Shown: positions 4,303-64,000, counted from the stretch's first letter. The stretch is 64,000 nt of DNA from an uncultured Acidiferrobacteraceae bacterium (GCA_913009895.1 CAJVXY010000005.1:2026-66025); one strand, 5' to 3'. Numbers and translations are program-made. The notes: generated by a model not told the origin, from the sequence alone.

Positions 4303-5103
<801 letters not shown>

Positions 5104-11100: not shown

Positions 11101-11113
11101 GATTTCCCCAGTA

Positions 11114-11140: not shown

Positions 11141-11143
11141 GGG

Positions 11144-11294: not shown

Positions 11295-12173
11295 ATGAAA
11301 TCAAAACTAAAAACCATTGGCCTGATTGGTAAATACGGCCGGGAAGAAATTGGTCCGGATATGTACCAGCTGGCGGAATTTTTACTGGCCAGGAATTTGC
11401 ACGTTATAGCTGAAAATGACACCGCCAAGCTCATTAATCATCCCAGGGTTAAAGGCGAAAAAATAGAAAGCATTGGTGAAAATATTGACCTGGCGATTGT
11501 TATTGGTGGCGATGGCACCATGCTTTATGTGGGCAGGAACCTGGCAGATTTCGAGGTTCCCCTGATTGGCATCAACCAGGGTCGTCTTGGGTTCCTGACA
11601 GATATCGCGCCCGGTAACATGCTGGAAGAAGTGGGTAAAATTCTGGACGGGGATTTTGCAAGTGAAATTCGTTTCATGCTCCATGCAGAAGTCATGCGTG
11701 CCGGCAAAATTGTCCATACCGCGGTTGCCTTGAATGATGTGGTCATAAACAAGGGTGAACTGGCACGACTAATCGAATTTGAAGTTTACCTTGATGGTGA
11801 ATTTGTCAATAACATTCGCGCCGACGGCATGATTGTCGCTACCCCGACTGGTTCTACTGCTTATGCCCTGTCTGCTGGCGGCCCTATTTTGCATCCGACT
11901 TTGCCGGCCATGGCGATTGTGCCTGTCTGCCCCCATACCCTTAGCGACCGGCCAATTGTCGTCAGCTGCGATAGTGTTGTTGAAACAGTTATTCTTGAGC
12001 TTGGTGATCAACGTTCATATTTAACACTGGACGGTCAGGCCAGTGTTTCACTGCAGGATCATGATCATGTTTATGTGCGAAAACTTTCGCACCCACTGGA
12101 GCTCATTCATCCTTCTGGTCGCAGTCATTTTGATGTGTTAAGGGCCAAACTACACTGGGGCGAAAAACTCTAG
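11295..12173 (+). CDS. nadK: NAD(+) kinase
   Basis: The ORF track starts at 11205; the likely start is MKSKLKTIGLIGK (ATG 11295). Motifs IVIGGDGTML and GFLTD are present. Confidence 0.9.
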   Translation: MKSKLKTIGLIGKYGREEIGPDMYQLAEFLLARNLHVIAENDTAKLINHPRVKGEKIESIGENIDLAIVIGGDGTMLYVGRNLADFEVPLIGINQGRLGFLTDIAPGNMLEEVGKILDGDFASEIRFMLHAEVMRAGKIVHTAVALNDVVINKGELARLIEFEVYLDGEFVNNIRADGMIVATPTGSTAYALSAGGPILHPTLPAMAIVPVCPHTLSDRPIVVSCDSVVETVILELGDQRSYLTLDGQASVSLQDHDHVYVRKLSHPLELIHPSGRSHFDVLRAKLHWGEKL

Positions 12174-12176
12174 GCC

Positions 12177-18372: not shown

Positions 18373-18730
18373 GGGGGCGACCTGGCTTCGACGTGGGTCA
18401 CAAAACCTAAGGGGCATGCCGAGGCGCAGTTACCTCGTAAATACAGCTGCAAACTTTATAGTTGCCAACGACGACAACTACGCTCTAGCTGCGTAAAGCA
18501 GGCTAGACCTTTCACTGATACTTGCTTGTGGGTTCAGGTTCGAAAGGTCATTTCACACAAGATCGTGTTGAAGCCCACCCGGGGCCGATTCATTAAACTC
18601 TAATCGGGATCGCTTGTAGTCTACCCTGCCCGTCGGGTAGCTGCCGGTTAAATTTAAAGACACGGCTAAGCATGTAGAACCGAAGGCGGAGTATTTGCGG
18701 ACGCGGGTTCGATTCCCGCCGCCTCCACCA
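18373..18730 (+). ncRNA. ssrA: tmRNA (transfer-messenger RNA, one-piece)
   Basis: 5' GGGGGCGACCTGGCTTCGACG pairs with 3' ...GGACGCGGGTTCGATTCCCGCCGCCTCCACCA (tRNA-Ala-like acceptor and T-arm). There is an internal tag ORF, and the gene lies directly after smpB. Confidence 0.97.
18464..18496 (+). other. tmRNA tag reading frame encoding ANDDNYALAA-stop
   Basis: GCC AAC GAC GAC AAC TAC GCT CTA GCT GCG TAA; compare E. coli ANDENYALAA. Confidence 0.9.
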
Positions 18731-19788: not shown

Positions 19789-20553
19789 ATGGGTACGTTG
19801 TTCATGGTGGGAATCGCAATCGCAGCCATAGGCGGTATTTGGCTGTTAATACTTGCATTTAAAGAAAGTTTTATTTGGGGAATAGGCTTTATTATTGTTC
19901 CCTTTGTGAGCCTCATATTTGTGGTTTTGAACTGGGGCAAAACATGGAAACCATTTCTTATTAATGTGATCGGTGGCGCACTGATATTTGCCGGGTACAC
20001 AACAACTATGCCGGATTTATATGAACTGGAAATGCTCACACAGGCGCAGGAAGAAATAACAAGACAGCTGAAAAATGGTGAGATAACACAGCAACAAGCA
20101 CAAACAGAACAGTTAAAAATAGTACAGGCCATGGCGGGAGGCGAAAAATACGTAAGTAGTTTCGACAGGCAAGAAATCGCCCCGGAACGACCTCTTGGTT
20201 ATACCCTCAGATCTGCTGAACCTGAAAAAGAAACACTTTCTGATTCGGAAAAAAAAGCGATCCAGAAAGAAAGAATAGAACAAGCCATCAGGAATGAATC
20301 AAAATACAAGAAAATTGTTAAGGCTAATGATCGAAAAAAAGGTTTCGTAGTAATTCATGCGGATGACGCATCGAAATATGTTGGCGAAGAAATAAAAGTC
20401 ACCATGAAAAAAGGCCAGGTAAGAAGCGGCGTACTTGTGGACACTGGCAAAAATACATTGCTGGTAGAAAGAAGAACGAGAAGTGGAAGGTATTCATTCA
20501 ACCTGGAGACTAAAAAAATAAAGAAGATAGAAGTCAATACGTGGTTGAACTAG
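19789..20553 (+). CDS. Hypothetical membrane protein (3 TM, Q/E-rich linker, small C-terminal beta-rich domain)
   Basis: 254-aa ORF preceded by an AT-rich upstream region; no family recognised. Confidence 0.55.
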   Translation: MGTLFMVGIAIAAIGGIWLLILAFKESFIWGIGFIIVPFVSLIFVVLNWGKTWKPFLINVIGGALIFAGYTTTMPDLYELEMLTQAQEEITRQLKNGEITQQQAQTEQLKIVQAMAGGEKYVSSFDRQEIAPERPLGYTLRSAEPEKETLSDSEKKAIQKERIEQAIRNESKYKKIVKANDRKKGFVVIHADDASKYVGEEIKVTMKKGQVRSGVLVDTGKNTLLVERRTRSGRYSFNLETKKIKKIEVNTWLN

Positions 20554-20622
20554 GGGAGTTCGAATTTACCCCCCCTTTTTTTTCCTTTTTTATTTTATCC
20601 GAATCGATTTTATTGTTGGCAT

Positions 20623-20910
20623 TTACTTTCTTAATGCTTTTAATACTGCACTAGGTTCTTTTGCAACAACATTAAGTAGGACCAGGGCTGGGCCATGAGG
20701 TGTACGGTCGCCGCGCTCCCAGTGTCGCAATGTACTGACACTAATACCAAATGCAGATGCAAATTCGTTTTGTGACATACCGACCTTGGCGCGAATCTTT
20801 TTCACGTCTACAGGTGTAAATTTATGTACGATGGCTTTTTGTTTTTTGCCTTTTGAAAATTCCAGGGCTTCATCCATGCCCTGTTTGATACTATCGAATG
20901 CACTACTCAT
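20623..20910 (-). CDS. HTH (XRE/COG2944-like) antitoxin of a HigBA-type module
   Basis: MSSAFDSIKQGMDEALEF...VGMSQNEFASAFGISVSTLRHWERGDRTPHGPALVLL. Its ATG overlaps the toxin stop (ATGAGTAG). Confidence 0.8.
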   Translation of the reverse strand: MSSAFDSIKQGMDEALEFSKGKKQKAIVHKFTPVDVKKIRAKVGMSQNEFASAFGISVSTLRHWERGDRTPHGPALVLLNVVAKEPSAVLKALRK

Positions 20911-21244
20911 TATGGCCTCCATAATTCTTAACAAGGAGAGACGTAAATTTTGCTAATTTATTACGCTCACTTTTTGAAATGTTAGCCTTTTCGCTTTTAC
21001 CGAAAATAGTTAACAGGAATAAAGGCATAGATCCATGATGGTAATAATAAATAACACGAACTCCACCACTTTTACCTTTGCCGTGTGCCGACCATCGTAA
21101 CTTGCGAATGCCCCCAGTGCCTTGCATTATGTCGCCAGATGCAGGATGAGATGCTAAGTACTTGATAATACTTGCTCTTTCCAGCTCACTGAGTAATTTA
21201 TCTGGTTTTTTCAGAAATTCAGGGAGTTCTACGATAGTTTGCAT
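20903..21244 (-). CDS. RelE/HigB-like toxin (COG4737-like)
   Basis: MQTIVELPEFLKK...GTGGIRKLRWSAHGKGKSGGVRVIYYYHHGSMPLFLLTIFGKSEKANIS. The track ORF (to 21394) over-extends into the repeat region. Confidence 0.8.
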   Translation of the reverse strand: MQTIVELPEFLKKPDKLLSELERASIIKYLASHPASGDIMQGTGGIRKLRWSAHGKGKSGGVRVIYYYHHGSMPLFLLTIFGKSEKANISKSERNKLAKFTSLLVKNYGGHNE

Positions 21245-21311
21245 CTCTAGATGCATAATCCATTGGATTATAGCTGTCAATGTGAGTTTATGAGAAGAGG
21301 AAAGGGGTGGC

Positions 21312-22055
21312 TCACTCTGACCTGGTTTTTTTGGGTGGCGTGGTATTGTCAAACAAGTGACTTGACCCCCCTCTCTGACCCCCCTCTCTCCCAAACAAGT
21401 GACTTGACCCCCCTCTCTCCATTTTTGAACACCAAATTAGGTAATTTGTCATACATAAATCTATTCTAACTTTATATATTTTCTCATCTAGCAATTCAAT
21501 TAGAATTGGATAAGAATATTTTTTAAATAGTATATTATTATTTTTATAAATTTCTATTCCTTCTAATGTGGCATAGTTATAATTAACCCATTTTTTAATT
21601 TCATCTAAATCATTCAATATAATTTTTTTTATTTCGTTATTATTTTCTCCTTCAATTTCTAGTGATCCAAGGATAGTTTTTTCTTCTAGAATGATTGTTA
21701 TAGAAAGACTGCTATCTGGAAAATATTTAATTACGAAAGCAGGAATTAATATTTCAATTTTACTTCCGTTAAAATAAATACTTGCACTAGTAATTTGGCT
21801 CTGAATATCATTTATAGATATTAATTTTCTGGGTTCATAACTTACATCTGTAAAACACTGATATAAATAGTCTGATTCCATTAAACTTATTATTTTCGAT
21901 ATATTCTTTTTTCCTTTATTGTTATATTTACTACATATTGTTGCATCGCTTACTTTTGGGATTAATATTTTATGAATAGTACATGTGCAATTACCAGCAT
22001 TACTTATGAGAAAGAATTCACAATTTTTACAATTTTCATTATTAACAATCATCAT
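21312..22055 (-). CDS. Hypothetical protein, very AT-rich, with an N-terminal Cys cluster
   Basis: 247 aa. The N-terminus reads CKNCEFF...NCTCTIH...ICSKY. The last ~35 codons (ERGGSSHLFGREGGQRGGSSHLF...) are read from the 26-bp repeats. Confidence 0.5.
   Translation of the reverse strand: MMIVNNENCKNCEFFLISNAGNCTCTIHKILIPKVSDATICSKYNNKGKKNISKIISLMESDYLYQCFTDVSYEPRKLISINDIQSQITSASIYFNGSKIEILIPAFVIKYFPDSSLSITIILEEKTILGSLEIEGENNNEIKKIILNDLDEIKKWVNYNYATLEGIEIYKNNNILFKKYSYPILIELLDEKIYKVRIDLCMTNYLIWCSKMERGGSSHLFGREGGQRGGSSHLFDNTTPPKKTRSE
21351..21418. repeat. 26-bp direct repeat x2 (aaacaagtgacttgacccccctctct) with an internal 13-bp partial copy
   Basis: Full copies at 21351-21376 and 21393-21418; partial copy gacccccctctct at 21377-21389. 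Confidence 0.85.
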
Positions 22056-22168
22056 AGGATCTCTCTATTACCACTGCACCATGACCAAACCAAATAAATG
22101 GCATCATTATTATTGTCTCAATAAATCCTCTACTGTTCTTTCTCTTCTTCATTAGCCTATCCCAATAT

Positions 22169-22306
22169 CCAGCTCTTGTTATTCAATCCAAGATGGCGAT
22201 TGTGGGTGCTGCCATGCGTAAACTGGTGCATTTAATCTACGGCGTACTTAAAAGTGGTGTACTGTTTGATGCTGATTACGTGATGAAGCAAACTAAAAAT
22301 GCTTGA
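22169..22306 (+). pseudogene. C-terminal remnant of an IS110-family transposase
   Basis: Translation PALVIQSKMAIVGAAMRKLVHLIYGVLKSGVLFDADYVMKQTKNA-stop matches the conserved IS110 C-terminal tail (…MRKLLHIIFGVLKSGKPFD…). No upstream catalytic part is present. Confidence 0.6.
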
Positions 22307-22377
22307 CGGTCAAGACGGTATCTGACCCGGGTTTTCTCGTCCCCTATTGCGTTCTCTGACCCGGGGTTTTTTTGGTT

Positions 22378-22692
22378 TTAAATATTCAGAAACCATATGG
22401 CAGCAACCATCAACATAATCCCGCTTCCTATCAACCCAATCATGTGAGACAAATTTTTCTTACTAGGCTTATTGATGATAACCGATTTTGTGGGGTGAAG
22501 TGGATTCACAAAAATCTGTATCGTTTTATTCTCAAACCAATTCAACCAAAATCTTCTATCGCTCTCAATAACATTACCCAATTCATCTACCTCGGGCACC
22601 CAATAGTCTTTTATGCTAAAACCTACCTTGCCTGATATAAACTCTCTACCATTATACTGGTATCTATAATTTATTTTGGGGTAATGAATCAA
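22378..22692 (-). CDS. Hypothetical protein with a C-terminal TM helix (possibly DUF3592-like)
   Basis: 104-aa AT-rich ORF; the family assignment is from memory only. Confidence 0.45.
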   Translation of the reverse strand: MIHYPKINYRYQYNGREFISGKVGFSIKDYWVPEVDELGNVIESDRRFWLNWFENKTIQIFVNPLHPTKSVIINKPSKKNLSHMIGLIGSGIMLMVAAIWFLNI

Positions 22693-22695
22693 TTT

Positions 22696-22712
22696 AAGGG
22701 GTCAGTACCCTT
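22696..22712. repeat. REP hairpin, form A (aaggggtcagtaccctt)
   Basis: 5-bp stem around a 7-nt loop. It contains the stop codon and last codons of the adjacent Y1 transposase. Inverted copies lie at 23465-23481 and 25661-25677, with a partial copy at 26211-26220. Confidence 0.75.
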
Positions 22713-23400
22713 TAATTACACGTACTGGCCGACCGCGACGTGACTGCCCTACTTTACAGCCCAATGTCTGCTCTATCTGCTGACGAAAATAATCATTCCC
22801 CAGCGGTGTGCCTGTCTGTACTGTAGTCCGAATAGTATGCACCTGATCAGGCGCCAGCGCATTACAAAATAATTCCCGATAAGCGTGTTGGCGAAGCGCA
22901 GCACTTTTACCCAGCGCCAGGTATTGTTCATGAGGCGCAATAAGCCGATTGAATTTACCTGTGGCATTCGACCCGTAGCTTGACCAGGGGTAGTCAATGG
23001 GTTGGTTAACCATCCCTGCCCTTACCGGGTTGAGCTCTATGTAACGCATACAGGCCAATAAATAATACTCGCTATCAATAAGACACCCCTTGTGTCGCCC
23101 CTCCCAGAGTGTGCCGCTTTTTCCATAGCTGTGGTTAATATAGGGCACATAGTGACGACCAGTATGTTGAATGGTGAGGCTGATTGCTTCGGGGCTACGG
23201 GGTGTCATTAGTAAATGCACATGGTTTGTCATTAAGACATAAGCATGAATGACGCACCCATGTTTATTAGCGCCTTCGTATAACCAGTTAAGGTAAGCAG
23301 TGTAATTATCATTTTCAAAAAAGACTGCCTGCCGACAGTTGCCTCTTTGAATAATATGGGCCGGAATATCCGGAAGATAAAATCGGGGTTTACGTGGCAT
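22702..23400 (-). CDS. IS200/IS605-like Y1 (HUH) transposase of the REP-associated (RAYT) type
   Basis: 232 aa, MPRKPRF...HAYVLMTNHVHLLMTP (HUH)...GTLWEGRHKGCLIDSEYYLLACMRYIELNPVRAGMV...YPWSSY. It is bracketed by inverted REP hairpins. Confidence 0.8.
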   Translation of the reverse strand: MPRKPRFYLPDIPAHIIQRGNCRQAVFFENDNYTAYLNWLYEGANKHGCVIHAYVLMTNHVHLLMTPRSPEAISLTIQHTGRHYVPYINHSYGKSGTLWEGRHKGCLIDSEYYLLACMRYIELNPVRAGMVNQPIDYPWSSYGSNATGKFNRLIAPHEQYLALGKSAALRQHAYRELFCNALAPDQVHTIRTTVQTGTPLGNDYFRQQIEQTLGCKVGQSRRGRPVRVIKGY

Positions 23401-23464
23401 ATGAACATCCTTGTTCAGTTAATGACGTTTAAATTTTAACGGGTTTTTGTATTTAAGGGTACTG

Positions 23465-23481
23465 ACCCCTTTGTTACTTAA
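23465..23481. repeat. REP hairpin, form B (aagggtactgacccctt)
   Basis: Exact reverse complement of the 22696-22712 copy, on the other side of the Y1 transposase gene. Confidence 0.75.
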
Positions 23482-23623
23482 CCCTCTGGGCCAAATACGC
23501 CGGGTTAGCGGCACCGGCCAGGGCATCAAAACGATAACTGCCATGGCTTGCCAGTTTCACATAAGGGGTATTAAACAAACCGGCCTGACGGAAATGTTTT
23601 TTCCTGAGTTTGGGTTTGTTTTT

Positions 23624-24523
23624 TTAATATAGTTCTAGCGGGAATCTTACGCTGTGTGGATTTTCAATCCAAATAAAAAAAAGTTCCTGCAAACTAAAAT
23701 TACGCCCCCACAAACCCCAATAACTCAGCGCACTTTCCCTGATTGATTCTTCCAATTTCGTATTACGCATTGATTTTATAGCGACAAGATACGATTCCTG
23801 AATGTTTTTAATCTCCCCCCAGCCAGGATAGTTTCTAAATTCAAATGGAAAATATACTTTTGGTGCAAAAAACTTCGTACCAGAATCTGAATATGGAAGA
23901 ATAAAATACTTTTTCATGGTATTGATGACCTTAAAATCAATATCCTGATGAGCGATATAGGCTCTAAACTCTACCGCTTCTTTTCCAAGTATATGAACAA
24001 TATTTTTCGAGCTCATCGCTCTATCGAATAAGCCCATAATATTTTTACTTGTATAGTGCGATAAGGAAATTAATGCAAACCAAATATCCAATTGATATTC
24101 ATCTTTATCTAGTAACTTAGAAAATGTATAGATTGTTTCTTCTATTGCGCTCTCTTCACCAAACATAGTTTTAATAAACCTTACTGCCGCTTGACTTCGG
24201 ATATTTTTTGATGGTCCATGCAGTTCTTCATGTTCTTTTATGCAACTAAAAACAGTTCCCCGATCTAATGTCAGCAAGACATCTGACGGATACATTACGT
24301 ACATATCTTCATCATCAATGAATAATAACGAGACGGCTTTTTTTATAATTGCAGTATTTTTTTCAAAGTTATAATCAAGCTTAATTATTTCCTGTGTTGC
24401 ACGAAATGATGCATCTGATTTGGTTGAATCCAGGAATTCGAGTAATGTTAAAACAATTTTTTCCTTCTCGTAATCCTCGGTCGAATCACGAAATTCTCTT
24501 AAAATATCTTGAATTGGTCGCAT
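23624..24523 (-). CDS. Hypothetical protein, AT-rich, predicted alpha-helical
   Basis: The ORF track extends to 24634 through the MITE; the likely start is MRPIQDILREF (ATG 24523). No family recognised. Confidence 0.5.
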   Translation of the reverse strand: MRPIQDILREFRDSTEDYEKEKIVLTLLEFLDSTKSDASFRATQEIIKLDYNFEKNTAIIKKAVSLLFIDDEDMYVMYPSDVLLTLDRGTVFSCIKEHEELHGPSKNIRSQAAVRFIKTMFGEESAIEETIYTFSKLLDKDEYQLDIWFALISLSHYTSKNIMGLFDRAMSSKNIVHILGKEAVEFRAYIAHQDIDFKVINTMKKYFILPYSDSGTKFFAPKVYFPFEFRNYPGWGEIKNIQESYLVAIKSMRNTKLEESIRESALSYWGLWGRNFSLQELFFIWIENPHSVRFPLELY

Positions 24524-24572
24524 AATTATATTTTTTATCAAAACCCGAAAAACCCGGGTCAGAGAATAATGG

Positions 24573-24724
24573 CACTGACTTAAGCCCAATAAGTCTTTTG
24601 TGTAGGTTGGACTGAGGAACGAAGTCCAACGCAAGTGCTAAATAAAGCGCCGCTGTTGGACTTCGTTCCTCAGTCCAACCTACGGAGAACTATGTTTAAA
24701 CCAGATATTAGGCTTAAGTCAATG
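24573..24724. mobile_element. Palindromic MITE-like element, copy 2
   Basis: Same outer ends and the same perfect 29-bp arms (24602-24630 and 24655-24683) as copy 1. The 24-nt loop is the reverse complement of the copy-1 loop (22 of 24 positions). Confidence 0.8.
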
Positions 24725-24766
24725 CCATTAGGGTCTGCCATTAGGGTCAGTGCCATTAGGGTCAGA
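24724..24766. repeat. Tandem repeat gccattagggtc(n) x3
   Basis: gccattagggtct gccattagggtcagt gccattagggtcaga, abutting the MITE. Confidence 0.8.
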
Positions 24767-24786
24767 GAACAATTATTACTAATATA

Positions 24787-25526
24787 CTAATCAATGTAAT
24801 ACACACCCAAGCTTTCTTCAATACAGGGCCGTCCAGCCTGCCCTTTTCTTGTTTGTCTTTTGGTCATTTGTTCTATTTTATCTTTAAAATCATCTCGTCC
24901 TAACACCAATTCCTGATTCAGTGCTTCACGAATATCATGCAACAGGGTGCCATCCATATGATGGTGAAACAATTCCCGGTATGCGTGTTGTCTTGCGGCT
25001 GTTGTATTCGCTATTGCTAAATACAGGGGGTGGGGTGTTATCAATGTATCTGACCTGCTCTGGGCATGAAAGGCGTAACGGACCAACGATACTCGCCGGT
25101 ATGTTTAACCATGTTGGCACGAACAGGGTTGAGTTCAATGTAGCGCATACAAGTCAGCAGGTACGCTTCGCTATCAATCAGGCTGGCCTTAAACCGACCT
25201 TCCCAGAGCGTGCCAGAACGTTTGTATTCATGGTTAATATAACGGACATAACGCCTGCCCAGTGATTGCATGACTTCTGAAATACCGAATTCTGTTAAGG
25301 GCGTGATGAGCAGGTGTACATGGTTAGTCATCAAGACATAAGCATGGATATGACAATGAAACTTGTCACAGGCTGATTTCAGATCTTGTTTGTAGCGAAC
25401 ATAATCCTGTTCTGAAAAGAAACAAGGCTCACGATTGTGACCTCTTTGGATGATGTGTTGGGGTACGCCGGGCAGAGTAAAACGGGGTTTTCTTGGCATA
25501 TTCACCTCCTTGTGAATGGTTACCAT
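24787..25526 (-). pseudogene. Second Y1/RAYT-type transposase paralog, split by a frameshift near 25040-25090
   Basis: ORF 25041-25526 carries MPRKPRF...NHVHLLITP...GTLWEGRFKASLIDSEAYLLTCMRYIELNPVRANMV...YRWS. ORF 24787-25086 continues in another frame with YAFHAQ...ARQHAYRELF..., collinear with the intact paralog. Confidence 0.7.
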
Positions 25527-25590
25527 TTAAAATTATTATATGATTTTATTTTAAAATATTAGCAGTTATGTATATTAGAAGATATTGTTC

Positions 25591-25620
25591 TCTGACCCGG
25601 GTTTTTCTGACCCGGGTTTT
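25591..25620. repeat. 15-bp tandem repeat tctgacccgggtttt x2
   Basis: Read directly. Related single copies lie at about 22321-22336 and 22349-22366 and, in reverse orientation, at 24547-24564 and 24758-24770. Confidence 0.8.
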
Positions 25621-25657
25621 TCAGTTAATGACAGTTTAAATATTAACGCGTTATGAA

Positions 25658-25996
25658 TTAAAGGGTACTGACCCCTTTGTTGCCGCCTTTGTTGCCGCTA
25701 GTTTTTGGCTTGCCAATCTTATCGATTTTTAGCTGGATTATAAAAGGCGATATAAAAAATACTAAAGCAAAATAGCTTATTAAAATCTTTAACCATCTTG
25801 TCGACATCCCTGTACTGTAATAAGTCATTCCAAACAAAAAACCTAAGACAACCACAATTATTGCAAAAGGAAGCATTTTGAGTATATTGATGCTTAACAC
25901 TGAGCCACACTGTTTGCATATTAATCTTTTATAACGATTTAGAAATAGTAAATCTCTATATCGTATTTTTTCATTGCATTTTGGACATTTTTTCAT
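25658..25996 (-). CDS. Zinc-ribbon (CxxC...CxxC) membrane protein
   Basis: 112 aa, MKKCPKCNEK...ICKQCGS, then 2-3 TM helices. The C-terminal GNKGGNKGVSTL is encoded by a 12-bp duplication plus the REP. Confidence 0.5.
   Translation of the reverse strand: MKKCPKCNEKIRYRDLLFLNRYKRLICKQCGSVLSINILKMLPFAIIVVVLGFLFGMTYYSTGMSTRWLKILISYFALVFFISPFIIQLKIDKIGKPKTSGNKGGNKGVSTL
25661..25677. repeat. REP hairpin, form B
   Basis: aagggtactgacccctt. It supplies the last codons and stop of ORF 25658-25996. Confidence 0.75.
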
Positions 25997-26216
25997 TTTA
26001 CAAGTCTCTGTGGTTTAATAAAAAACTACTGTTGACAGTTCGCCTTTTCAAACTCGTCAGTGTACTGAATAAAAACATAACCAACTAAAGCGGCAACAAG
26101 AGCACCAATAAGCAGGCTCCTAGTAACTAATGAAAATGCTATGCCAACCAATATTGTCACTGCCGAGAAGGCAGCTATCAAAAATGCGAGGCTTTCACCT
26201 CCTGAATGTTAAGGGG

Positions 26217-55460: not shown

Positions 55461-56117
55461 CTAATCATCGCTCTTAAAGCCTGCTGCTGTGTGGCTGCCA
55501 TCACAAAAGGGCTTGTTTTTGGAAGCACCACAACGGCACAATGCTACCTGCTTTCCAGTCCAGGCTACCCGGCCACTGCCGTTGCTCATGGTTAGATTTC
55601 CTGAGACTAACAATGGGCCATCTGTCAGGGGCTTGATTTTTAACTTGCCACCGGTATTCTCCAAACCCTCTCCCGAATCACCAACAGCACCATAGTCCTT
55701 AAAATTACCGTCCTCATGGGAATTGTCACAGAATGGTTTATTTTTCGACAAACCACAACGGCATAATGCTGCCCGGTATTTAACACCGGTAAAATCGTCT
55801 GACACAGACTCAATTTCGAGGTCGCCTCGAACGAAATACGGGCCGTTATAACTGACGGTAACGGTATTACCAGTCTCAGGCTTTTCTTCAGCAGACTGAT
55901 CCTTGAGTGTGTAAGTCAAAGCGCCACTGGGACAACGCTCTACTACACTGATTGTTTCATCACCTGCTACCAGATCTGGTTGGCACCAGGGCTTGCGACC
56001 ACCGATGAAAAGCTCTCCCCTGGCACGACCGCACTCCGCGATATGGATACATAATACTCCATCCCATGTCACATCAATTTTTTCACCCGTAAATACGATT
56101 TTTTCATTGTTAGCCAT
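55461..56117 (-). CDS. CDGSH iron-sulfur domain protein (two CDGSH-type motifs plus an N-terminal divergent Fe-S region)
   Basis: CRCGLSKNKPFCDNSH and CRCGASKNKPFCDGSH. Confidence 0.8.
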   Translation of the reverse strand: MANNEKIVFTGEKIDVTWDGVLCIHIAECGRARGELFIGGRKPWCQPDLVAGDETISVVERCPSGALTYTLKDQSAEEKPETGNTVTVSYNGPYFVRGDLEIESVSDDFTGVKYRAALCRCGLSKNKPFCDNSHEDGNFKDYGAVGDSGEGLENTGGKLKIKPLTDGPLLVSGNLTMSNGSGRVAWTGKQVALCRCGASKNKPFCDGSHTAAGFKSDD

Positions 56118-56187
56118 AAAACACTCCTCCCGTGATTAATAAAATAACAAGAATCCAGTTAACCAGTTATAAAGAAAATTATAGCAA

Positions 56188-57150
56188 TCACAACCAGTTC
56201 GTAGTCAGAAAGCCCACACCAAAACGGGTGCTGGAATAATTATAATCAATCAGGCTCTCGCCATAACCATGGAATGCCTGAATATAAAACTGGAACCTGG
56301 GCACATACCAAACAGGAAAACCAAAGTCAATTTGTACCGCGCCTCGATTCTCTTTGGTAATTTCCAGGTTATTTCGTAATAGCATACTGGCCTGGTATTT
56401 ACCGTTACTATAGGCAAATATAATATCACCCCTGCCCATATAATCGAGGATATGGCGATTATCATCACTGCTCTTGCTCTCCGGTATACGATACCAGGGC
56501 CGTAAACTTAACGCGTAATTTCCCCTGGCAAAAACGGTGTTCAGGTAAATACGGTTCCAACTTCGTGATTTTGGTTCGGTCTGGCCATTGGATTGATGGT
56601 TAAAAGCCAGGGTCATCACGGGCACCTCTATATCCCAAAATACTTTTCTCATGGGTAAATAGTTCAACATTATTTCAGGCTCATAATTTGATTCACGAAA
56701 AGGTGCCGAGTTTCTTTTATTGTATAACTGCCAGAAAGATTTCTGTGTATAGCCGATAAAAGCGGAGAAATGATCTTGGGATTTATTTTCCTGGATCCAG
56801 ATGGGATATTTAAAACTGACCTGAAAAATCACTTCCTGGTTATTTGGCTCTCCTTCATAACCGATCCAGGTATCCAGGTTTGGTTCTTGCTCATAGGCAT
56901 ATAACAGGATGTAGTTCTGCTTGTGGGGGATAAGCGTATTACTTTCTGCCAGGGCGCGGCCCTCTTTATTGATCCGGCAATCTACCCGGGTAACTTCGTC
57001 AGGTAATGACCGATTTTTACAAATGTTCTTAACGCGTCTATATTCTTCTCTGTTCCTCTTTTTTTCATCTGTTGGCTCTGCATTTATTTCAGCGAATACA
57101 CTTGTCATAAAAAATACTGAAAAAAGAAAAATCAATAATCGCATACTCAT
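56188..57150 (-). CDS. pldA: Outer-membrane phospholipase A
   Basis: Signal peptide, YEPEI, and the catalytic motif FNHQSNGQTEPKSRSWNRIY (His-Ser...Asn as in E. coli PldA). Confidence 0.85.
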   Translation of the reverse strand: MSMRLLIFLFSVFFMTSVFAEINAEPTDEKKRNREEYRRVKNICKNRSLPDEVTRVDCRINKEGRALAESNTLIPHKQNYILLYAYEQEPNLDTWIGYEGEPNNQEVIFQVSFKYPIWIQENKSQDHFSAFIGYTQKSFWQLYNKRNSAPFRESNYEPEIMLNYLPMRKVFWDIEVPVMTLAFNHQSNGQTEPKSRSWNRIYLNTVFARGNYALSLRPWYRIPESKSSDDNRHILDYMGRGDIIFAYSNGKYQASMLLRNNLEITKENRGAVQIDFGFPVWYVPRFQFYIQAFHGYGESLIDYNYSSTRFGVGFLTTNWL

Positions 57151-57389
57151 TTTAACTATAAGCTCCCTTTTTTATTTTTTTGACCGTAAACAAGGATTTA
57201 TTATTACACTAAAACTTTCGATATGCCCCCTGTTATCTGCAGTTGGCCTGCATTGTAGCGTGGTCGCAAATAATAAAAAACTGTAACAGCAATCAACAAC
57301 ACCAACTTCATGCTAAAAAATGATGGAAAGCAAAATATTCATATTTTTTTCCGGAGAATTGGTTGTCCAGGTTTCTATTTGGTACAGGA

Positions 57390-57878
57390 TTATCGACCGC
57401 CCGGATAATATTTACCACGACGATTTAATGATCTGCCAGAAACGTTACCCCCTGGCCTACTACTTTGACCCGCCCTTGCGTTCAATACTGACACCGGCAC
57501 CAGTTGGCCACTATCCTGCTTGCCTTTTGGTAATAACCTCAATCCACTGACCACGGCTCTTTGTTCAGCATTAGTTTTGTATTCAATGACATAACTCAGG
57601 CCCTTGACTACTTTTTGCAGGGCCTGTTGTAGTGATTGCGGTGGCAACTGAAAATTAACAGTTTTTTCAACCGCAGGATCAACGCGTATGGTGATATTCG
57701 TTTTTTGGGCCACTTCTGATAGCACAGAAGTTAACGAGGCGTTCTGAGCCTGGATGCTTATTTTATCGCGCTGTTGATCGTATTCAATCGCAATATATGG
57801 GTTGCTGGCAAAAAGCGATGCTGGTAAACCCAGCACCAACGCAAGCATAGTAGCCAAATAACCGGATAGATAAGGCAT
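57390..57878 (-). CDS. Hypothetical secreted protein (STN-like segment possible)
   Basis: 162 aa with a signal-like N-terminus; LTSVLSEVAQKTNITIRVDPAV resembles secretin/TonB N-terminal short domains. Confidence 0.45.
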   Translation of the reverse strand: MPYLSGYLATMLALVLGLPASLFASNPYIAIEYDQQRDKISIQAQNASLTSVLSEVAQKTNITIRVDPAVEKTVNFQLPPQSLQQALQKVVKGLSYVIEYKTNAEQRAVVSGLRLLPKGKQDSGQLVPVSVLNARAGQSSRPGGNVSGRSLNRRGKYYPGGR

Positions 57879-58015
57879 AGTAATCTCAAAAAATTCAATC
57901 CAGAGTCCTCATAATACGCCCGCAGTGCAGGTTTTTCCACAAACTGGTGTACCAATTGTTATGCTATCGCTCCATTAGTTTCCAGGAAAACTTAAATCAC
58001 GATATAATCCCGCCA

Positions 58016-58786
58016 ATGAACACAAGCACCCGCCAGCAACTTACATTCAAAAATAAAACAGGCCATGCCCTGTCGGCAATACTGGAAAAACCCGAATCAG
58101 ATATAAAGGGTTATGTCTTATTCGCTCACTGTTTCACCTGTGGTAAAAATATCGGCACCGCAACACAAGTTAGCCGTGCACTGGCAAAAAGAGGTTTTGC
58201 GGTATTGCGTTTTGATTTTACCGGGCTCGGTGGTAGCGAGGGTGATTTCTCCCATACCAACTTTAGCTCTAACATTGACGACCTGGTAGCTGCGGCAGAT
58301 TATATGCGTGATCATTTGCAGGCACCGGACATACTGCTCGGTCATAGTCTGGGTGGTGCTGCTGCTATTATTGCTGCCAATCGTATACCCGAAGTACGCG
58401 CCATAGCCACGATTGCCGCCCCCAGTGATCCGGCCCACCTGGAACAACTGCTAACTGAAACAATGTCCACTATTCGTAAACAGGGCTGGGCCCACGTGAA
58501 CATTGGTGGTCAGAGATTTACCCTGCGCCAGCAGTTCCTGGATGATATTAGCGAACATTCATTGGCCGATGCCCTGAGGTCACTGAACCGCCCCTACCTG
58601 GTGCTGCACTCCCCCGATGACAAACTGGTGGAGTTTGAACATGGCCGCCATTTATTTGATATGGCCCTGGAGCCCAAGAGTTTTATCTCCCTGGATGGTG
58701 CCGATCATTTGTTAAGTAAAACTGCGGATGCCGACTTAGCCGCGGAAAAAATTGCTAACTGGAGTAGTCGTTACCTTGAGAACTAA
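58016..58786 (+). CDS. Alpha/beta hydrolase
   Basis: The likely start is MNTSTRQQLTF (the track ORF starts at 57947). It has the nucleophile elbow GHSLGG and a C-terminal SPDDKLV...DGADH. Confidence 0.8.
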   Translation: MNTSTRQQLTFKNKTGHALSAILEKPESDIKGYVLFAHCFTCGKNIGTATQVSRALAKRGFAVLRFDFTGLGGSEGDFSHTNFSSNIDDLVAAADYMRDHLQAPDILLGHSLGGAAAIIAANRIPEVRAIATIAAPSDPAHLEQLLTETMSTIRKQGWAHVNIGGQRFTLRQQFLDDISEHSLADALRSLNRPYLVLHSPDDKLVEFEHGRHLFDMALEPKSFISLDGADHLLSKTADADLAAEKIANWSSRYLEN

Positions 58787-59010
58787 ATATTGCAAATTGG
58801 CATTATCTGTCCCTGACAAATTACTCGCTGGTTTTCTATCAAATAATCATATTTAGTGCGGTATCTCAATTTATTATCCAGAAATACCTGCAAGTAGTCT
58901 CCTAACCTTGAGGTTAATCAATACAATTCTTGTGGCACTACCTATACTGGCCGTGCAGGGATTGTAATTCTACGGGGTTGACGTGGAATCTGTTTCTTCG
59001 GGGGTTTGGA

Positions 59011-62000
59011 ATGACTGCCACACAAAAAAAAATAAAACCGGCCAAGCTAAGCATCCCCAGGTTGCGTTCTGTTTTTCGCCGCGATCGGTTGCATGCACTT
59101 TGGGACAAGGCACGGTCCGAGGGCTGCCAGGTTCTGTGGCTATCGGCGCCGGGTGGTTCCGGTAAAACCCTGGCGGTTGCCGACTACCTGCGACAGAAAA
59201 AACTCCCTACTACCTGGTATCAATTTGACGAAGCCGATACCGATCCAGCATCGTTCTTTCATCACCTGACCCAGGCATCGGAGACCAGGAAACCTGCTTC
59301 CCTGCCTTCTTTAACCGCAGAATACAGCTTTGGCCTGGAGACTTTCGCACGCAACTATTTTCGTGAACTCGGCCAACACCTCAAGACACCGGGTTTACTG
59401 GTATTTGATAATTACCAGGACCTGCCTGGGCAATCCATAATAAATACCTTGCTGCCTGTGGGTATCACAGCACTTCCGGCAGATATCACAGTCGTAATCA
59501 TTAGCCGCATAGAACCACCGGAAAGTTTTATACGATTACGGGCCCATGGTGATTTACGCTTGTATGACTGGGAAACATTAAAACTTACTCACGATGAAAC
59601 CGGGGAAGTGTGTAAATTTCTCGAGGGTAGTGACGTGGCCCCTGATCATATTGAACGACTCTATGAATCAACCCATGGCTGGATTACCGGGCTTGTGCTG
59701 ATGCTGGAAAGCAAGCAAGAACCCAGGGCAGAAGCGGATCAACAGGAACTGATATTCAGTTATTTTGCCAGAGAAATTTTTGCCCGTGCGGACCAGGATG
59801 TCCAGGAGTTATTATTAAAAACGGCGATGCTCCCGGAAATGACCATTGAAACCATTATTGCAGTCACCGGACAACCCAATGCCCGGGAAATCATAGAAGA
59901 CTTACACCGACGCAACTTTTTTATTGTTGAGCTGGGTCATGATCCCGTTTATTACCGATACCATCCCCTGTTTCAACAATATCTTATTGGCGCTGCCCAG
60001 GCCAGGTATCCGGAAGTCGAGTATAAAAGCCTGGTGGAAAAGTCAGCCAATGCCCTGCGCCTGACAAAAAAACCGGAACTGGCCATCCCATTATATCTTG
60101 CCTCGGAAAACTATGCAGTGGCTTGTAATTTGTTATTACAGATTGTCGAGCCCTTACATAAGCAGGGACGTGATGCGACTTTACGAGAATGGATAAATAA
60201 ACTGCCTGGCGAACTGGCTATGAACAATGGCTGGATACAATACTGGCTGGGTCAGACCATGATAGCCTTTGATCCGTTACAGGCCCACGATTGTTTTGAG
60301 AGGGCCTATCAAATTTTTTCAGAATCAAATGAAGTAAATGGCCAGTACCGCGCTATCAGTGGCGGATGCCGATCTCTATATGTATCCCAGCGCGAGCAAA
60401 CCGGACAGGATGTCTGGATTAACAGAATTGTCGAGCTGGATAAGATTTGCCCACTCACATCTGTTAATACGGATACTGCGGATATTTTAGCTAACGTATT
60501 ACTGGTTATGCACTGGCGGGACCCCACAAACAAATACATGCTCAAATATTTGGTGGAAGCAGAAAAAATATGGAGCGAGACCAATGATGTCGACAAGCGC
60601 CTTAATCTTGGTGTCACAATTGTGTGTTTATGGGGTGGTTTGGGTAATGTACGGGAGGGCATCGCCTTACTGCAACAACAACAACAATTGGCAGAACGGC
60701 TCCCCCGGGTATCATTATCGGTGTTATGGCATTACATGTATGTGGGGTTTTCTAATTGTTTCGCCGGACAACTGGACAAGAGCCAGGCAGCGATCGATCG
60801 CGCCCTGGGACTGGCAGAATCATCCGGTATCCATGTTGCAGACCTGCTTTTACTGGGGGTTGGGGCTCACAATCCATTGTTAACGGGAAGGTTATCTTTG
60901 GCCGATCACTACCTTGACCGTATGCAGCCCATCCTGGCGTCAATGCCCCTGAACCTTGATGCGGCCCACTATCATATCCTGCGGGGCTGGCGAAACTTGT
61001 GGGGAAAAGACTATCAAGCAGCGTTAATGGAGAGCCAAAAAGCGGTTGCTATCGCCGAAACAATTGGCGCGAAATATCCCTTGTCTCTATGTAAATATGG
61101 TTTGGCCCATGCGCATATTGCCAACGGTGACTTCGACCAGGCCCAAACCTTGTTGCATCTGGCCCATAGCCCATTCGGAGAAGGAACCTATCGTCGTTTG
61201 GATTATGAGATTGCCCTGGCCGAAGTCTATATCGATATATTGACGGGCAATCGCCAAGGCGCCATAGAAAAAATTAAACAAGGAATGCAGATCGCTGTCG
61301 CAGACGGTTATGGTCCGCCACTATGGGGCTATCCGGATTTCCTGTTGGCTGTTTTCGGGCTTGCACTGGAAGAACAAATCGAAGTGCCCTATATTCAAAA
61401 ATTGATTCAGATCGCCTGCCTGGTTCCCGATTCCCCACCATTGCATCTATACAACTGGCCCTATCCGATCAAGATTTACACCCTGGGGCGTTTCAGTTTG
61501 TTGAGAGGTGATGCGCCATTACAAATGGCCAACAAGGAACAATCCAGGCCACTGGAAATGCTAAAAATGCTGATTGCATTTGGTGGCAGAGGAATCAGCG
61601 AAGAGTTATTTAACGAACATATGTGGCCCGATGCAGAAGGTGATGCGGCCCACAGTTCTTTTGCTACTACCCTGTCGAGATTACGCAAACTCCTGGGCCA
61701 GGACACCCTGTTACTCAGTGGCGGCAAATTGAGCCTGGATGACCGACGCTGCTGGATCGATGTCTGGGCTTGCGAACGTTTATTAGGTCAGCTGGATCAC
61801 TTATTCGAAACAGATGAGCCACCAGAAGTTATTAAAAATTTACTTGCTAAAGCCATTGAATTGCATCGTGGCCCGTTTCTACAGGCAGAAAACGGGGGTT
61901 GGGCAATCACACTGCGTGAAAAAATACGTACCCGCTTGCTGAGAAACATTAAAAAACTCATTCTTTTAAGCCATGATTGTCAGCAGGTAATTGAACTCCA

Positions 62001-62253
62001 TGAACAGGCATTACAACTTGATGATTTGTCAGAGGATAGCTATAGAGGGCTGATGGCCTGCCTGGCGGCGCAGGGTAATGTCGCAAAGGCTTGTGCGGTC
62101 TACCACCGCTGCCAAAATATTTTACACACGACCTTTGGCATAGAACCGAGCGCCCAAACACGGCAGACCTATGATGCAATTAAGAACGAGAATCAAGCCG
62201 AAATTATGAACGCCTGCAAAACCTGTAAGCGGGAAAATAACGCTTTACCATAA
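59011..62253 (+). CDS. STAND-type regulator: MalT-like N-terminal ATPase, helical/TPR-like middle, C-terminal SARP (winged-helix plus BTAD) domain
   Basis: The likely start is MTATQKKIKPAKLSIPRL. Walker A is LSAPGGSGKT and Walker B is LLVFDNYQD. The C-terminus reads IKIYTLGRFSLLRGDAPL...RPLEMLKMLIAFGGRGISEELFNEHMWPD...YRGLMACLAAQGNVAKACAVYHRCQNILHTTFGIEPSAQTRQTYDAI. Confidence 0.75.
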   Translation: MTATQKKIKPAKLSIPRLRSVFRRDRLHALWDKARSEGCQVLWLSAPGGSGKTLAVADYLRQKKLPTTWYQFDEADTDPASFFHHLTQASETRKPASLPSLTAEYSFGLETFARNYFRELGQHLKTPGLLVFDNYQDLPGQSIINTLLPVGITALPADITVVIISRIEPPESFIRLRAHGDLRLYDWETLKLTHDETGEVCKFLEGSDVAPDHIERLYESTHGWITGLVLMLESKQEPRAEADQQELIFSYFAREIFARADQDVQELLLKTAMLPEMTIETIIAVTGQPNAREIIEDLHRRNFFIVELGHDPVYYRYHPLFQQYLIGAAQARYPEVEYKSLVEKSANALRLTKKPELAIPLYLASENYAVACNLLLQIVEPLHKQGRDATLREWINKLPGELAMNNGWIQYWLGQTMIAFDPLQAHDCFERAYQIFSESNEVNGQYRAISGGCRSLYVSQREQTGQDVWINRIVELDKICPLTSVNTDTADILANVLLVMHWRDPTNKYMLKYLVEAEKIWSETNDVDKRLNLGVTIVCLWGGLGNVREGIALLQQQQQLAERLPRVSLSVLWHYMYVGFSNCFAGQLDKSQAAIDRALGLAESSGIHVADLLLLGVGAHNPLLTGRLSLADHYLDRMQPILASMPLNLDAAHYHILRGWRNLWGKDYQAALMESQKAVAIAETIGAKYPLSLCKYGLAHAHIANGDFDQAQTLLHLAHSPFGEGTYRRLDYEIALAEVYIDILTGNRQGAIEKIKQGMQIAVADGYGPPLWGYPDFLLAVFGLALEEQIEVPYIQKLIQIACLVPDSPPLHLYNWPYPIKIYTLGRFSLLRGDAPLQMANKEQSRPLEMLKMLIAFGGRGISEELFNEHMWPDAEGDAAHSSFATTLSRLRKLLGQDTLLLSGGKLSLDDRRCWIDVWACERLLGQLDHLFETDEPPEVIKNLLAKAIELHRGPFLQAENGGWAITLREKIRTRLLRNIKKLILLSHDCQQVIELHEQALQLDDLSEDSYRGLMACLAAQGNVAKACAVYHRCQNILHTTFGIEPSAQTRQTYDAIKNENQAEIMNACKTCKRENNALP

Positions 62254-62413
62254 ATTGACATAAACCTGCCAGCCTGGTTAAAGGCCGGCCACACCCCCTT
62301 CCCCCTTATGAATAATAACTTGATTTTTATCAAGCCAGCTTTCCTGTTCCAACCAATTCTATATATAATTTTTTGTGACCTGCATGTGACCCCGGCGGGT
62401 GTAGCTTGGTGTC

Positions 62414-62611
62414 ATGGAAAAACAGCATACAAACAGCGTGGCTAACCGGAATGTGGAAAATTATGTATTACGTCTTTACCGGCAAAGTGGGGCATCAGAT
62501 CACCAGGAGCTGGTGGGGATACTCGAAGAGCCAGCCTCCGGTGAGCGCTGGCCTTTCAAGTCATTGCGGGAACTTAACCACCTGCTTAAGGCACGCCAGG
62601 ATATTGAATAA
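62414..62611 (+). CDS. Small hypothetical protein (65 aa)
   Basis: ORF with YVLRLYRQSG...LVGILEEPASGERWPFKSLRELNHLL; the RBS is weak. Confidence 0.45.
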   Translation: MEKQHTNSVANRNVENYVLRLYRQSGASDHQELVGILEEPASGERWPFKSLRELNHLLKARQDIE

Positions 62612-62649
62612 TTAGAGACTAAGGCAAGATTGTATAAAAGGAGGCAATC

Positions 62650-62808
62650 ATGAAACGTTTAATCACAATACTGGTTTTTATTACAGCCATTGTCACACTG
62701 ACTGCCTGTGGTAACAGTAGTAGCGGCGGTGGTGGTGGATCACCCCCGGCAAATCCAGGCTCCAGTAACTGGGATGAATTGGTCTGGGATCAGGATGACT
62801 GGGCCTGA
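62650..62808 (+). CDS. Small lipoprotein (52 aa); below the ORF-track size cut-off
   Basis: AAAGGAGG RBS, then MKRLITILVFITAIVTLTAC|GNSSSGGGGGSPPANPGSSNWDELVWDQDDWA-stop. Confidence 0.6.
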   Translation: MKRLITILVFITAIVTLTACGNSSSGGGGGSPPANPGSSNWDELVWDQDDWA

Positions 62809-62833
62809 TGATTTAAAAGTTGGAGGATGTGAT

Positions 62834-64000
62834 ATGAAGACATTTAATAAATATTTTGTATTCGCATTGTGCAGCTTGTTTTATGCAACTGCCTGGGCTA
62901 GCAACGTTACTATCCCCAACAATTTTACCTCTGGCACACCTGCAGTAGCGGCTGATGTGAATGCCAACTTCGGTGCAGTGGAAACCGCGGTGGATGAAAA
63001 TGATGGCCGCATTACAATTAATGCCAGTGACATGGCGGCACTGCAATCAACTGTTAGTACTTTGCAGTTAACCATTTCCAGTTTGCAATCTGACCTGGAG
63101 AATGCCAACAATGCCATTAACGCATTACAAACCACAATGACAGGTAAAGCGGATGTCAGTCACAACCACGATGCCAGTTACTCGGCCCTGGGTCATAATC
63201 ATGCCGGAACCTATTCGTTAATTTCACACGATCATGCTGGTGTTTACGCCCCATTGAAACACGGTCACGTGTTAGGCGAAATCAAAGGCTTGGTTCCTGC
63301 GCTTAATACCCACACCAGCCAGATCGGCACCCACACCAGCCAGATCAGCGCCATTAACAGCAGTGAGATCATGGCACTGTCTCCATATGTGACCGTAGCC
63401 AACGACAGTCGCGGACCCATCGCCACCTTCAGCGGTCTCAACCTGCAACTTGTCAACGGGACAGGTACAACCGACGGTGTCCCCAATCGATTGGGTAACT
63501 TTATTATTGGCTATGACGTGGCCCGCAATGACAATTCCTACTTTTGCTCCTCGGGAAATTACACAAGCCTGACAAGCTGTGGGAATGCTGGTTATACCTG
63601 GGCCGTGTCACACAAGACCGGTTCCCATTACTTGATAATCGGCGACCAAAATAACTATAGCCAATACGGCGGTCTCGTAGTAGGCAGGAGAAATACCAGC
63701 AACCGTGATTATGCGAGTGTTAGTGGTGGCCAATTCAATATTGCCAGCGGTAGTTATTCCAGCATCAGCGGCGGTAGTGCCAACAAGGCAAGCGGAGGTG
63801 TTGCTAGCATCAGCGGTGGTAGTGGCAACATTGCAAGCTTTGACTTTACCAGTATCAGCGGCGGTCTCGGCAACACTGCCAGTGGCGTCAATGCCAGCAT
63901 CAGCGGCGGTGGCGGTAATATCGCCAGCCACAACAATTCCAGCATTCTCGGTGGTGTCGGCCAGACAACAAGCAACCCGAGCCAGACCATCCCGGCGCTG
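62834..64000 (+). CDS. Secreted tail-fibre-like / YadA-head-like repeat protein, 5' partial (continues past the window end)
   Basis: Absent from the ORF track (no stop codon). GGAGGA RBS and signal peptide MKTFNKYFVFALCSLFYATAWA. It then has a coiled-coil segment, HxH repeats (SHNHDASYSALGHNHAGTYSLISHDHAGVYAPLKHGH) and SGGxxNxAS repeats. Confidence 0.75.
   Translation, partial: MKTFNKYFVFALCSLFYATAWASNVTIPNNFTSGTPAVAADVNANFGAVETAVDENDGRITINASDMAALQSTVSTLQLTISSLQSDLENANNAINALQTTMTGKADVSHNHDASYSALGHNHAGTYSLISHDHAGVYAPLKHGHVLGEIKGLVPALNTHTSQIGTHTSQISAINSSEIMALSPYVTVANDSRGPIATFSGLNLQLVNGTGTTDGVPNRLGNFIIGYDVARNDNSYFCSSGNYTSLTSCGNAGYTWAVSHKTGSHYLIIGDQNNYSQYGGLVVGRRNTSNRDYASVSGGQFNIASGSYSSISGGSANKASGGVASISGGSGNIASFDFTSISGGLGNTASGVNASISGGGGNIASHNNSSILGGVGQTTSNPSQTIPAL

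Follow-up and report, generated by a model that had tools for sequence, protein, structure and literature searches.

A predicted transcriptional switch in an uncultured Acidiferrobacteraceae bacterium: a MalT-type STAND regulator with a C-terminal SARP module, a candidate operator and a small-protein gene ahead of exchangeable exported cargo

What does a SARP-type regulator govern at the end of a stretch of gammaproteobacterial DNA, and does it form a unit with the genes that follow it? SARP regulators have been treated mainly as an actinobacterial tool of antibiotic control. In this study, we analysed 64,000 nucleotides from an uncultured Acidiferrobacteraceae bacterium (GCA_913009895.1 CAJVXY010000005.1:2026-66025; hereafter the window, meaning the whole stretch), in which positions 59011-64000 hold four genes on the + strand, encoding a regulator, a 65-aa protein, a 52-aa Gly-rich lipoprotein and a signal-peptide protein. 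All four, proposed in a first-pass annotation made from the sequence alone, were confirmed at the positions given there. We compared the locus with related loci totalling 2.2 Mb, in which L-numbers denote individual loci or contigs: L001 is the same locus in the gammaproteobacterial metagenome-assembled genome (MAG) GCA_011040135.1, L002 the same locus on a marine metagenome contig from another assembly, L003 the closest orthologous locus (regulator identity 56%), L087 the nearest relative judged by the small protein, and L005 that of a cultured relative, Thiothrix fructosivorans. On comparative grounds the gene pair of regulator and small protein, together with its predicted promoter, recurs across phyla and chance is ruled out. 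We consider it probable that the locus is a transcriptional switch cassette composed of the regulator, an operator, the small-gene promoter and exchangeable exported cargo. Conserved as a unit are the regulator and the predicted operator, joined in about 40% of loci by the small gene, and this unit stands ahead of genes for interchangeable exported proteins. The first-pass annotation had suggested a possible regulator and surface-structure locus; its regulatory half is kept as a unit with operator and small gene, whereas the surface cargo varies.

The regulator open reading frame (ORF) spans 58930-62253 on the + strand, and from the ATG at 59011 it encodes 1080 aa, identical to the MAG-annotated protein. 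Residues 10-440 align to MalT (NCBIfam, E 7e-50), the MalT winged-helix domain PF25873 WHD_MalT is present, and MalT 8BOB was matched among PDB sequences both by the single sequence (residues 9-404, E 1e-22) and by the family profile (E 1e-57). At the other end, residues 823-1058 align to AfsR 32-266 (NCBIfam AfsR, E 5e-10), and the family profile matched AfsR 29-265 (E 5e-14) and EmbR (E 4e-7) among PDB sequences. The C-terminal pair Trans_reg_C and BTAD, anticipated by the first-pass annotation, was recovered in part: Pfam found BTAD at residues 916-1057 (E 2e-18), while Trans_reg_C gave no Pfam match in the window protein though several homologues match it. Pfam gave no match to a GerE/LuxR helix-turn-helix at E<=1. 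The AlphaFold2 model of the regulator (pLDDT 89.6, pTM 0.83) places in order an alpha/beta P-loop domain, a winged helix, a helical solenoid, a strand-rich winged helix-turn-helix (wHTH) and an all-helical domain (limits in Table 1), and Foldseek matched this model to MalT, the STAND-TPR protein PH0952, the AfsR SARP domain and EmbR, with TM-scores normalised to the target of 0.77 for MalT and 0.69 for the AfsR SARP domain.

The protein combines an N-terminal MalT-type P-loop nucleotide-binding oligomerisation domain (NOD) and MalT winged helix, which define MalT/LAL regulators, with an OmpR-type winged helix followed by BTAD, which defines SARPs. In large SARPs the SARP module is N-terminal, with NOD and TPR after it; here the NOD comes first, then the helical repeats, then the SARP module. 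Domain models, profiles, structure prediction and fold search agree on a predicted architecture of MalT-type P-loop ATPase, helical repeats and C-terminal SARP module, the reversal of the AfsR order that had been claimed from the sequence. Walker A is intact in the regulator. Walker B, at window 59407-59412, reads hhhhDN (LVFDNYQ) as against DD in MalT, and its Asn is nearly invariant among 33 homologues; this residue may make ATP hydrolysis slow or absent.

This architecture is widespread and already flagged by automatic annotation, not rare. In a word-indexed search, 228 clusters of 1000-1100 aa share the Pfam content of the regulator, and a scan of one genome per species gave at least 506 relatives, the best 80 of 506 all being full-length. 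They occur in Gammaproteobacteria, Burkholderiales, Desulfobacterota, Nitrospirota, Planctomycetota, Chloroflexota and Methylomirabilia, under pipeline names such as 'BTAD domain-containing putative transcriptional regulator' or MalT/SARP; cultured carriers include Thiothrix fructosivorans ATCC 49748 (L005) and Steroidobacter sp. S1-65. A literature search on the architecture and on the NCBI product name returned no characterised member and nothing relevant. GSU1771 of Geobacter was considered as a characterised member and rejected, being a receiver-SARP protein of a different family.

Between the regulator and the 65-aa gene lies a predicted SARP operator of two tandem 11-bp direct repeats, and the pattern TGTGACC-N4-TGTGACC occurs in one exact copy only in the 64-kb window. 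When regions upstream of small genes were aligned, 30 of 31 carried ATCTGTAACCn twice, followed by 9 nt and TAnnnT. A position weight matrix (PWM) was trained on 30 of these sites, which had been chosen upstream of small genes, other matches being new predictions; it found 58 sites at >=18 bits in the related loci against 0 in shuffles. Nearly all of the 58 adjoin a regulator gene, loci outside the training set included; many of the sites are outside this set, and these directly precede signal-peptide or lipoprotein genes. Of 78 loci, 48 have the predicted operator on the regulator's own strand and at most 2.5 kb downstream (at most 500 bp in 38 of these); in 3 others it lies divergently upstream of the regulator. 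In L003 there are three operator copies: the small gene has one ahead of it, and so has each of two lipoprotein genes. The latter two, at L003 7393-7436 and 9943-9986, are near-identical operator-promoter copies with their flanks, preceding paralogous Cys-polyGly lipoprotein genes, and here the promoter appears to have been duplicated along with the gene.

In published SARP sites, direct repeats recur with an 11-bp phase beside the -10 element (PMC10936776). Computationally, the same arrangement is found here, with 11-bp phased direct repeats by a predicted -10 hexamer and overlapping the -35 region. The strongest evidence in this study that the regulator would read the predicted site is computational covariation between the two: the residue at X of the recognition helix (TTL[X]RLRK) varies together with positions 7-8 of the repeat, the bases after xxxxGT (Fisher p=1.4e-4), His pairing with A[A/C/T] in 23 of 29 loci and non-His residues with other bases in 16 of 21. 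Ser and TGTGAC are combined in the window, L016 and L087.

In the window as in L087 (TACGGT-atagcc-ATG), 6 nt separate the hexamer from the start codon of the small gene, and the spacing from repeat to hexamer is likewise the same; the small gene may thus be leaderless in the window clade, while in other clades it is preceded by a leader that contains a ribosome-binding site. Just past the regulator stop codon, at window 62268-62289, lies an imperfect GC-rich hairpin (GCCAGCCTGG...GGCCGGC) without a + strand T-run; it may separate regulator transcription from the operator promoter.

The 65-aa ORF differs from a 57%-identical homologue preferentially at third codon positions, which shows it to be a real coding sequence. 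Searches with this single sequence were nearly blind, returning only itself or 5 true relatives, therefore a profile was needed; with 34 members it gave at least 869 clusters, all of 53-100 aa, all 'hypothetical' and none with a Pfam domain. The protein itself had no match in Pfam, NCBIfam or PHROGs, and neither Pfam nor NCBIfam holds a model of the family. Two of the alignments (A2 and A4) could not serve for locus scans, being too divergent. A hidden Markov model built from the first relatives was run on the 73 loci with enough sequence; in 28 of them (about 38%) the regulator is followed on its own strand by a small ORF, usually 70-330 bp away and at times up to 2 kb. The L003 homologue is a 70-aa protein at the same position. 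Conversely, the regulator lay directly upstream in all 5 long contigs seeded from the small protein. The co-occurrence of this family with SARP-type regulators, which had been put forward as worth checking, is thereby borne out, and the presence of the small gene is scattered over the regulator tree. The family is invariant at Y17, R20, Y22, R23, G35, F48, E53 and L54, and its AlphaFold2 model consists of three strands and a helix (overall pLDDT 77, with 84-91 in the core).

Several variants of the locus were observed. In L097 and L098 the operator is followed by a receiver-domain (CheY-like) gene and then the small gene, with a second receiver-domain gene downstream; here the same small protein is wired differently. 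L093 encodes two paralogous MalT-SARP regulators (3354-6623 and 10191-13394), 3.5 kb apart and with one operator each; behind the first come the small gene and a gene for a periplasmic solute-binding protein. Toxin-antitoxin pairs (RelE/ParE-like, HEPN-nucleotidyltransferase, MazE-PIN) have repeatedly been inserted beside the regulator gene (L011 3939-4531, L024 11218-11955, L086 7198-7829, L096 1830-2473 and L084 3888-4452), usually between the regulator and the operator or small gene; the exception is L084, where the pair is just upstream of the regulator. In Thiothrix fructosivorans, a protein with DUF2278 and a lamin-tail domain (L005 12357-13751) carries a partial second small-protein domain (LVGTVQTAESGVRLNFSGMNGLWQAMIRL) in its N-terminal reading frame.

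We therefore propose the following model, with its parts held at different strengths. The regulator would act as a MalT-type STAND ATPase whose helical repeat region serves as the signal sensor. Once activated, it may oligomerise, as judged from MalT and AfsR, and comparative evidence suggests that two of its C-terminal SARP modules would bind the two 11-bp repeats just downstream of its own gene. As the repeats overlap the -35 region, the bound regulator would substitute for the -35 element, and transcription from the promoter 9 bp downstream would cover the 65-aa gene, the mini-lipoprotein, the fibre-like protein and a 279-aa secreted paralogue, which are putatively co-transcribed. The 65-aa protein, as the conserved first product, would act back on the regulator and tune its DNA binding or activation as AfsS does on AfsR, and the exported cargo would be exchangeable between lineages. 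Taken on its own, the role of the 65-aa protein as an AfsS-like feedback partner is a tentative proposal, the one favoured here by analogy, that we judge a little more apt to fail than to hold. The bolder claim, that the MalT-SARP regulator and the 'YIVRIYR' protein are a widespread Gram-negative counterpart of AfsR/AfsS in which the regulator induces the small protein from the operator and is in turn bound by it at its repeat or SARP region, seems to us doubtful. If true, this would be a feedback switch committing cells to lineage-specific surface lipoproteins and fibres, and a STAND-plus-small-protein circuit would have arisen twice with unrelated small proteins.

A number of observations weigh against this model. 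The window operator scores only 12 bits on the family PWM because its core is TGTGACC, its distance to the -10 is about 3 bp greater than that of the afs box, and L005 has the gene pair with no recognisable operator. In a metagenome scan, 8 short loci were confirmed and 7 could be judged; the regulator was seen upstream of the small gene in only 2 of the 7, the remaining loci having toxin-antitoxin or receiver-domain genes within the 0.6-2.7 kb of upstream sequence that their contigs cover. About 60% of regulators have no small gene, and the operators at those loci directly precede exported-protein genes, thus the small protein is not required for activation. No regulator column separates loci with and without the small gene, the best (p=0.0014 among about 1000 columns) being not significant when corrected. 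Finally, the 65-aa protein, a single predicted beta3-alpha domain, has no significant or informative fold neighbour in PDB, and no AfsS-type repeats are visible in its sequence, the AfsS sequence itself not being part of the comparison.

The alternative that survives best leaves regulator and operator as in the model and makes the 65-aa protein a cytoplasmic accessory of the cargo instead of a partner of the regulator, either a nucleic-acid binder with the downstream mRNA or other promoters as its target, or a factor required to make the Cys-polyGly lipoproteins. A Lys/Arg-rich C-terminal tail in many homologues, the invariant R20, Y22 and R23 of the first strand, and the best fold matches, MBD and Cren7, which are small DNA-binding beta-sheet domains though the matches are not significant, would speak for an accessory. 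Lipoproteins starting with Cys-polyGly, present in 5 of 19 loci with the small gene against 1 of 29 without it (p=0.03, uncorrected), would do so too, but this enrichment is weak and phylogenetically non-independent. Moreover, the window protein lacks the basic tail and is slightly acidic, and the heterogeneous cargo fits poorly with a cargo-specific helper of one conserved kind. We regard an accessory role as unlikely, if well ahead of the explanations that follow.

Could the tandem repeat instead be a promoter or repeat element of a generic kind, or a binding site for another factor, that adjoins the regulator by coincidence? The choice of PWM training sites upstream of small genes would favour such a reading, but the matches, absent from shuffles, lie almost all beside the regulator even in untrained loci, the repeat covaries with the recognition helix, and 11-bp phasing at a fixed distance from the -10 is a SARP signature, so that we hold coincidence to be very improbable. 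Slightly less credible still is quorum sensing of the RRNPP kind, in which the TPR region would sense a signalling pro-peptide, encoded by the small ORF, after its export and processing. The order of regulator and small ORF does resemble PlcR-PapR and Rap-Phr, and the family profile weakly matches Rap TPR domains (E 2e-4); against this, the small protein carries neither a signal peptide nor a hydrophobic segment, it is predicted to be folded, its conservation lies in the folded core and not in a C-terminal peptide, and the hosts are Gram-negative.

As for the cargo, a strong ribosome-binding site precedes the 52-aa gene, whose substitutions relative to L087 follow a coding-type pattern; in L087 its product is kept as 51 aa ending SSNWDSMVWDKDKWS, the common C-terminal motif being NWDxxVWDxDxW. 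The Gly-rich lipoprotein of the first-pass annotation can therefore be upheld, and it is without a database record. The Gly run at window 62719-62742 counts 5 Gly in the window, 4 in L001/L002 and 7 in L087, the tether varying in length in frame.

The last gene is cut by the end of the window, and its full length of 390 aa was read from L002. It encodes, in order, a signal peptide (AWA/SN), an N-terminal module, a coiled coil, four HxH motifs and UspA1-type head repeats; these C-terminal repeats (SxSGGxxNxASG) match the UspA1 adhesin head with E 2e-8, the sole significant similarity of the protein. The coiled coil is weakly like tail needles (phrog_1219, E 5e-4; P22 gp26, E 0.012), Pfam PTR stayed below its cut-off, and no YadA-type membrane anchor was found by Pfam, the full-length protein in L002 ending after the head repeats. 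The next gene in L002 encodes a 279-aa secreted protein sharing the N-terminal module of the fibre-like protein (NVTIPNNFTSGTPAVAADVNANF), so the locus does run past the window by at least one more secreted protein, as had been supposed. Intergenic gaps of 38, 25 and 61 nt from the 65-aa gene through the 279-aa gene, with no predicted terminators between them, suggest one operon through the latter.

The order of regulator, operator, small gene, mini-lipoprotein and fibre-like protein is kept in L087, and beyond the window/L087 clade neither the mini-lipoprotein nor the fibre gene recurs. The link between the regulator and the genes behind it, which the first-pass annotation had assumed, is thus upheld by the 65-aa family, by the operator in between and by the gene order in L087. 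Over the loci the cargo is heterogeneous, comprising beta-propellers, fn3/Big/PKD domains, peptidyl-prolyl isomerases, S8 peptidase, CsgG, Lcl_C and PEP-CTERM proteins, and by a crude test an N-terminal hydrophobic signal-like segment is present in 58 of 82 cargo ORFs. No biosynthetic enzymes were found among the downstream genes and the source is a gammaproteobacterial MAG, which sets the regulator apart from actinobacterial activators of secondary metabolism.

The fibre-like protein had been credited with phage-tail-fibre features; its signal peptide stands, whereas the phage likeness is weak and tblastn gave no match among 50,697 phage genomes. A phage-derived or anti-phage locus, with the regulator as an Avs-like STAND sensor and the fibre as a tail-fibre or tailocin remnant, is the least probable reading of all. 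In its favour, defence often involves STAND NTPases, the HxH motifs of the fibre come with a coiled coil weakly like tail needles, and toxin-antitoxin pairs are often inserted at these loci; against it, PADLOC matched none of the four proteins, no other phage genes were found near the locus, and the effector domain is a DNA-binding activator and not a nuclease or protease. The quorum-peptide, defence and phage readings are all poorly supported.

Elsewhere in the window, a tmRNA gene at 18373-18730 encodes the tag peptide ANDDNYALAA, and GC content falls to 0.36-0.41 after it (20000-26000) as against about 0.45-0.49 elsewhere; this stretch may be a genomic island integrated at ssrA. An Rfam scan of window 56000-64000 gave no match.

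Table 1. Features of the locus in window coordinates
Feature	Position (nt)	Regulator residues	Strand	Basis or remark
STAND/SARP regulator, 1080 aa	59011..62253		+	Pfam, NCBIfam, profile, AlphaFold2, Foldseek
P-loop NOD	59068-59730	20-240	+	approximate limits
Walker A		G49-G51-K52-T53		within P-loop NOD
Walker B		D133-N134		within P-loop NOD
Winged-helix/arm	59740-60006	244-332	+	approximate limits
Helical TPR-like solenoid	60013-61416	335-802	+	approximate limits
OmpR-type wHTH, recognition helix TTLS889RLRK	61468-61758	820-916	+	approximate limits
BTAD	61759-62232	917-1074	+	approximate limits
Predicted SARP operator, two tandem 11-bp direct repeats	62371..62392		+	comparative
Operator repeat TTTTGTGACCT	62371-62381		+	
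Operator repeat GCATGTGACCC	62382-62392		+	
TGTGACC cores	62374-62380 and 62385-62391		+	
Predicted -10 hexamer TAGCTT (TAnnnT)	62402..62407		+	9 bp past downstream repeat; inference
65-aa cytoplasmic protein, 'YIVRIYR...LVGVVEE...F...ELW' family	62414..62611		+	predicted beta-beta-beta-alpha
52-aa mini-lipoprotein	62650..62808		+	lipobox LTAC, Gly-rich tether, acidic Trp-rich C-terminus NWDELVWDQDDWA
Secreted fibre-like protein, 390 aa at full length	62834..64000		+	window ends one codon early

The regulator combines known kinds of protein, MalT and SARP, and the small-protein family and the operator appear undescribed. The locus stands for a large uncharacterised family in which the DNA-reading module of SARPs is fused the other way round to a MalT-type ATP switch. 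Judging by its outputs, namely exported lipoproteins, adhesin-like fibres, beta-propellers and Ig-fold proteins, the cassette may serve to remodel the cell surface under certain conditions in many environmental bacteria that have not been cultured. A motif of 11-bp repeats would offer a simple sequence-based predictor of these regulons, and the operator consensus, the predicted specificity residue and the small-protein family, for which databases hold no model, are directly testable.

Among known systems the closest is AfsR-AfsS of Streptomyces. AfsR directly activates afsS, and AfsS binds AfsR and raises its affinity for DNA (PMC10832544); a SARP dimer binds the afsS promoter at a 22-bp box, in which two 11-bp direct repeats overlap the -35 (PMC10936776). 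Both systems have a regulator of about 1000 aa with SARP module, P-loop NOD and TPR-like repeats, a small gene (about 63-aa in AfsR-AfsS) that comes next on the same strand and has a SARP-box promoter, and two 11-bp direct repeats over the -35 region, which here are predicted. However, the SARP module is C-terminal here, the box lies about 3 bp further upstream of the -10, and the small protein has an unrelated predicted beta3-alpha fold without AfsS repeats. The hosts here are Gram-negative, and the targets are exported or surface proteins and not antibiotic clusters. The NOD is of MalT type, while that of AfsR we take to be of the NB-ARC/AP-ATPase type.

MalT and the LAL regulators share the N-terminal part, in which some 400 residues align with E. 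coli MalT 8BOB and are followed by the winged helix and a helical repeat sensor; they differ in a LuxR/GerE helix-turn-helix where a SARP module (wHTH and BTAD) stands here, in a D-D Walker B, and in MalT boxes as against predicted 11-bp direct repeats. GSU1771 (COG3947) of the Gram-negative Geobacter is a REC-SARP regulator with an N-terminal signal-input domain and a C-terminal SARP (PMC10599522), the same placement of the SARP module as in the regulator described here; its input is a phosphoreceiver and not a STAND ATPase with a repeat sensor, and homology is limited to the SARP module. The 390-aa protein, with four HxH motifs and a coiled coil, recalls trimeric phage fibres, from which it differs in having no significant phage homologue, its weak PHROG matches covering the coiled coil only. 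Its C-terminal repeats match the head of UspA1; unlike trimeric autotransporter adhesins of the UspA1/YadA kind, the 390-aa protein carries no YadA-type anchor.

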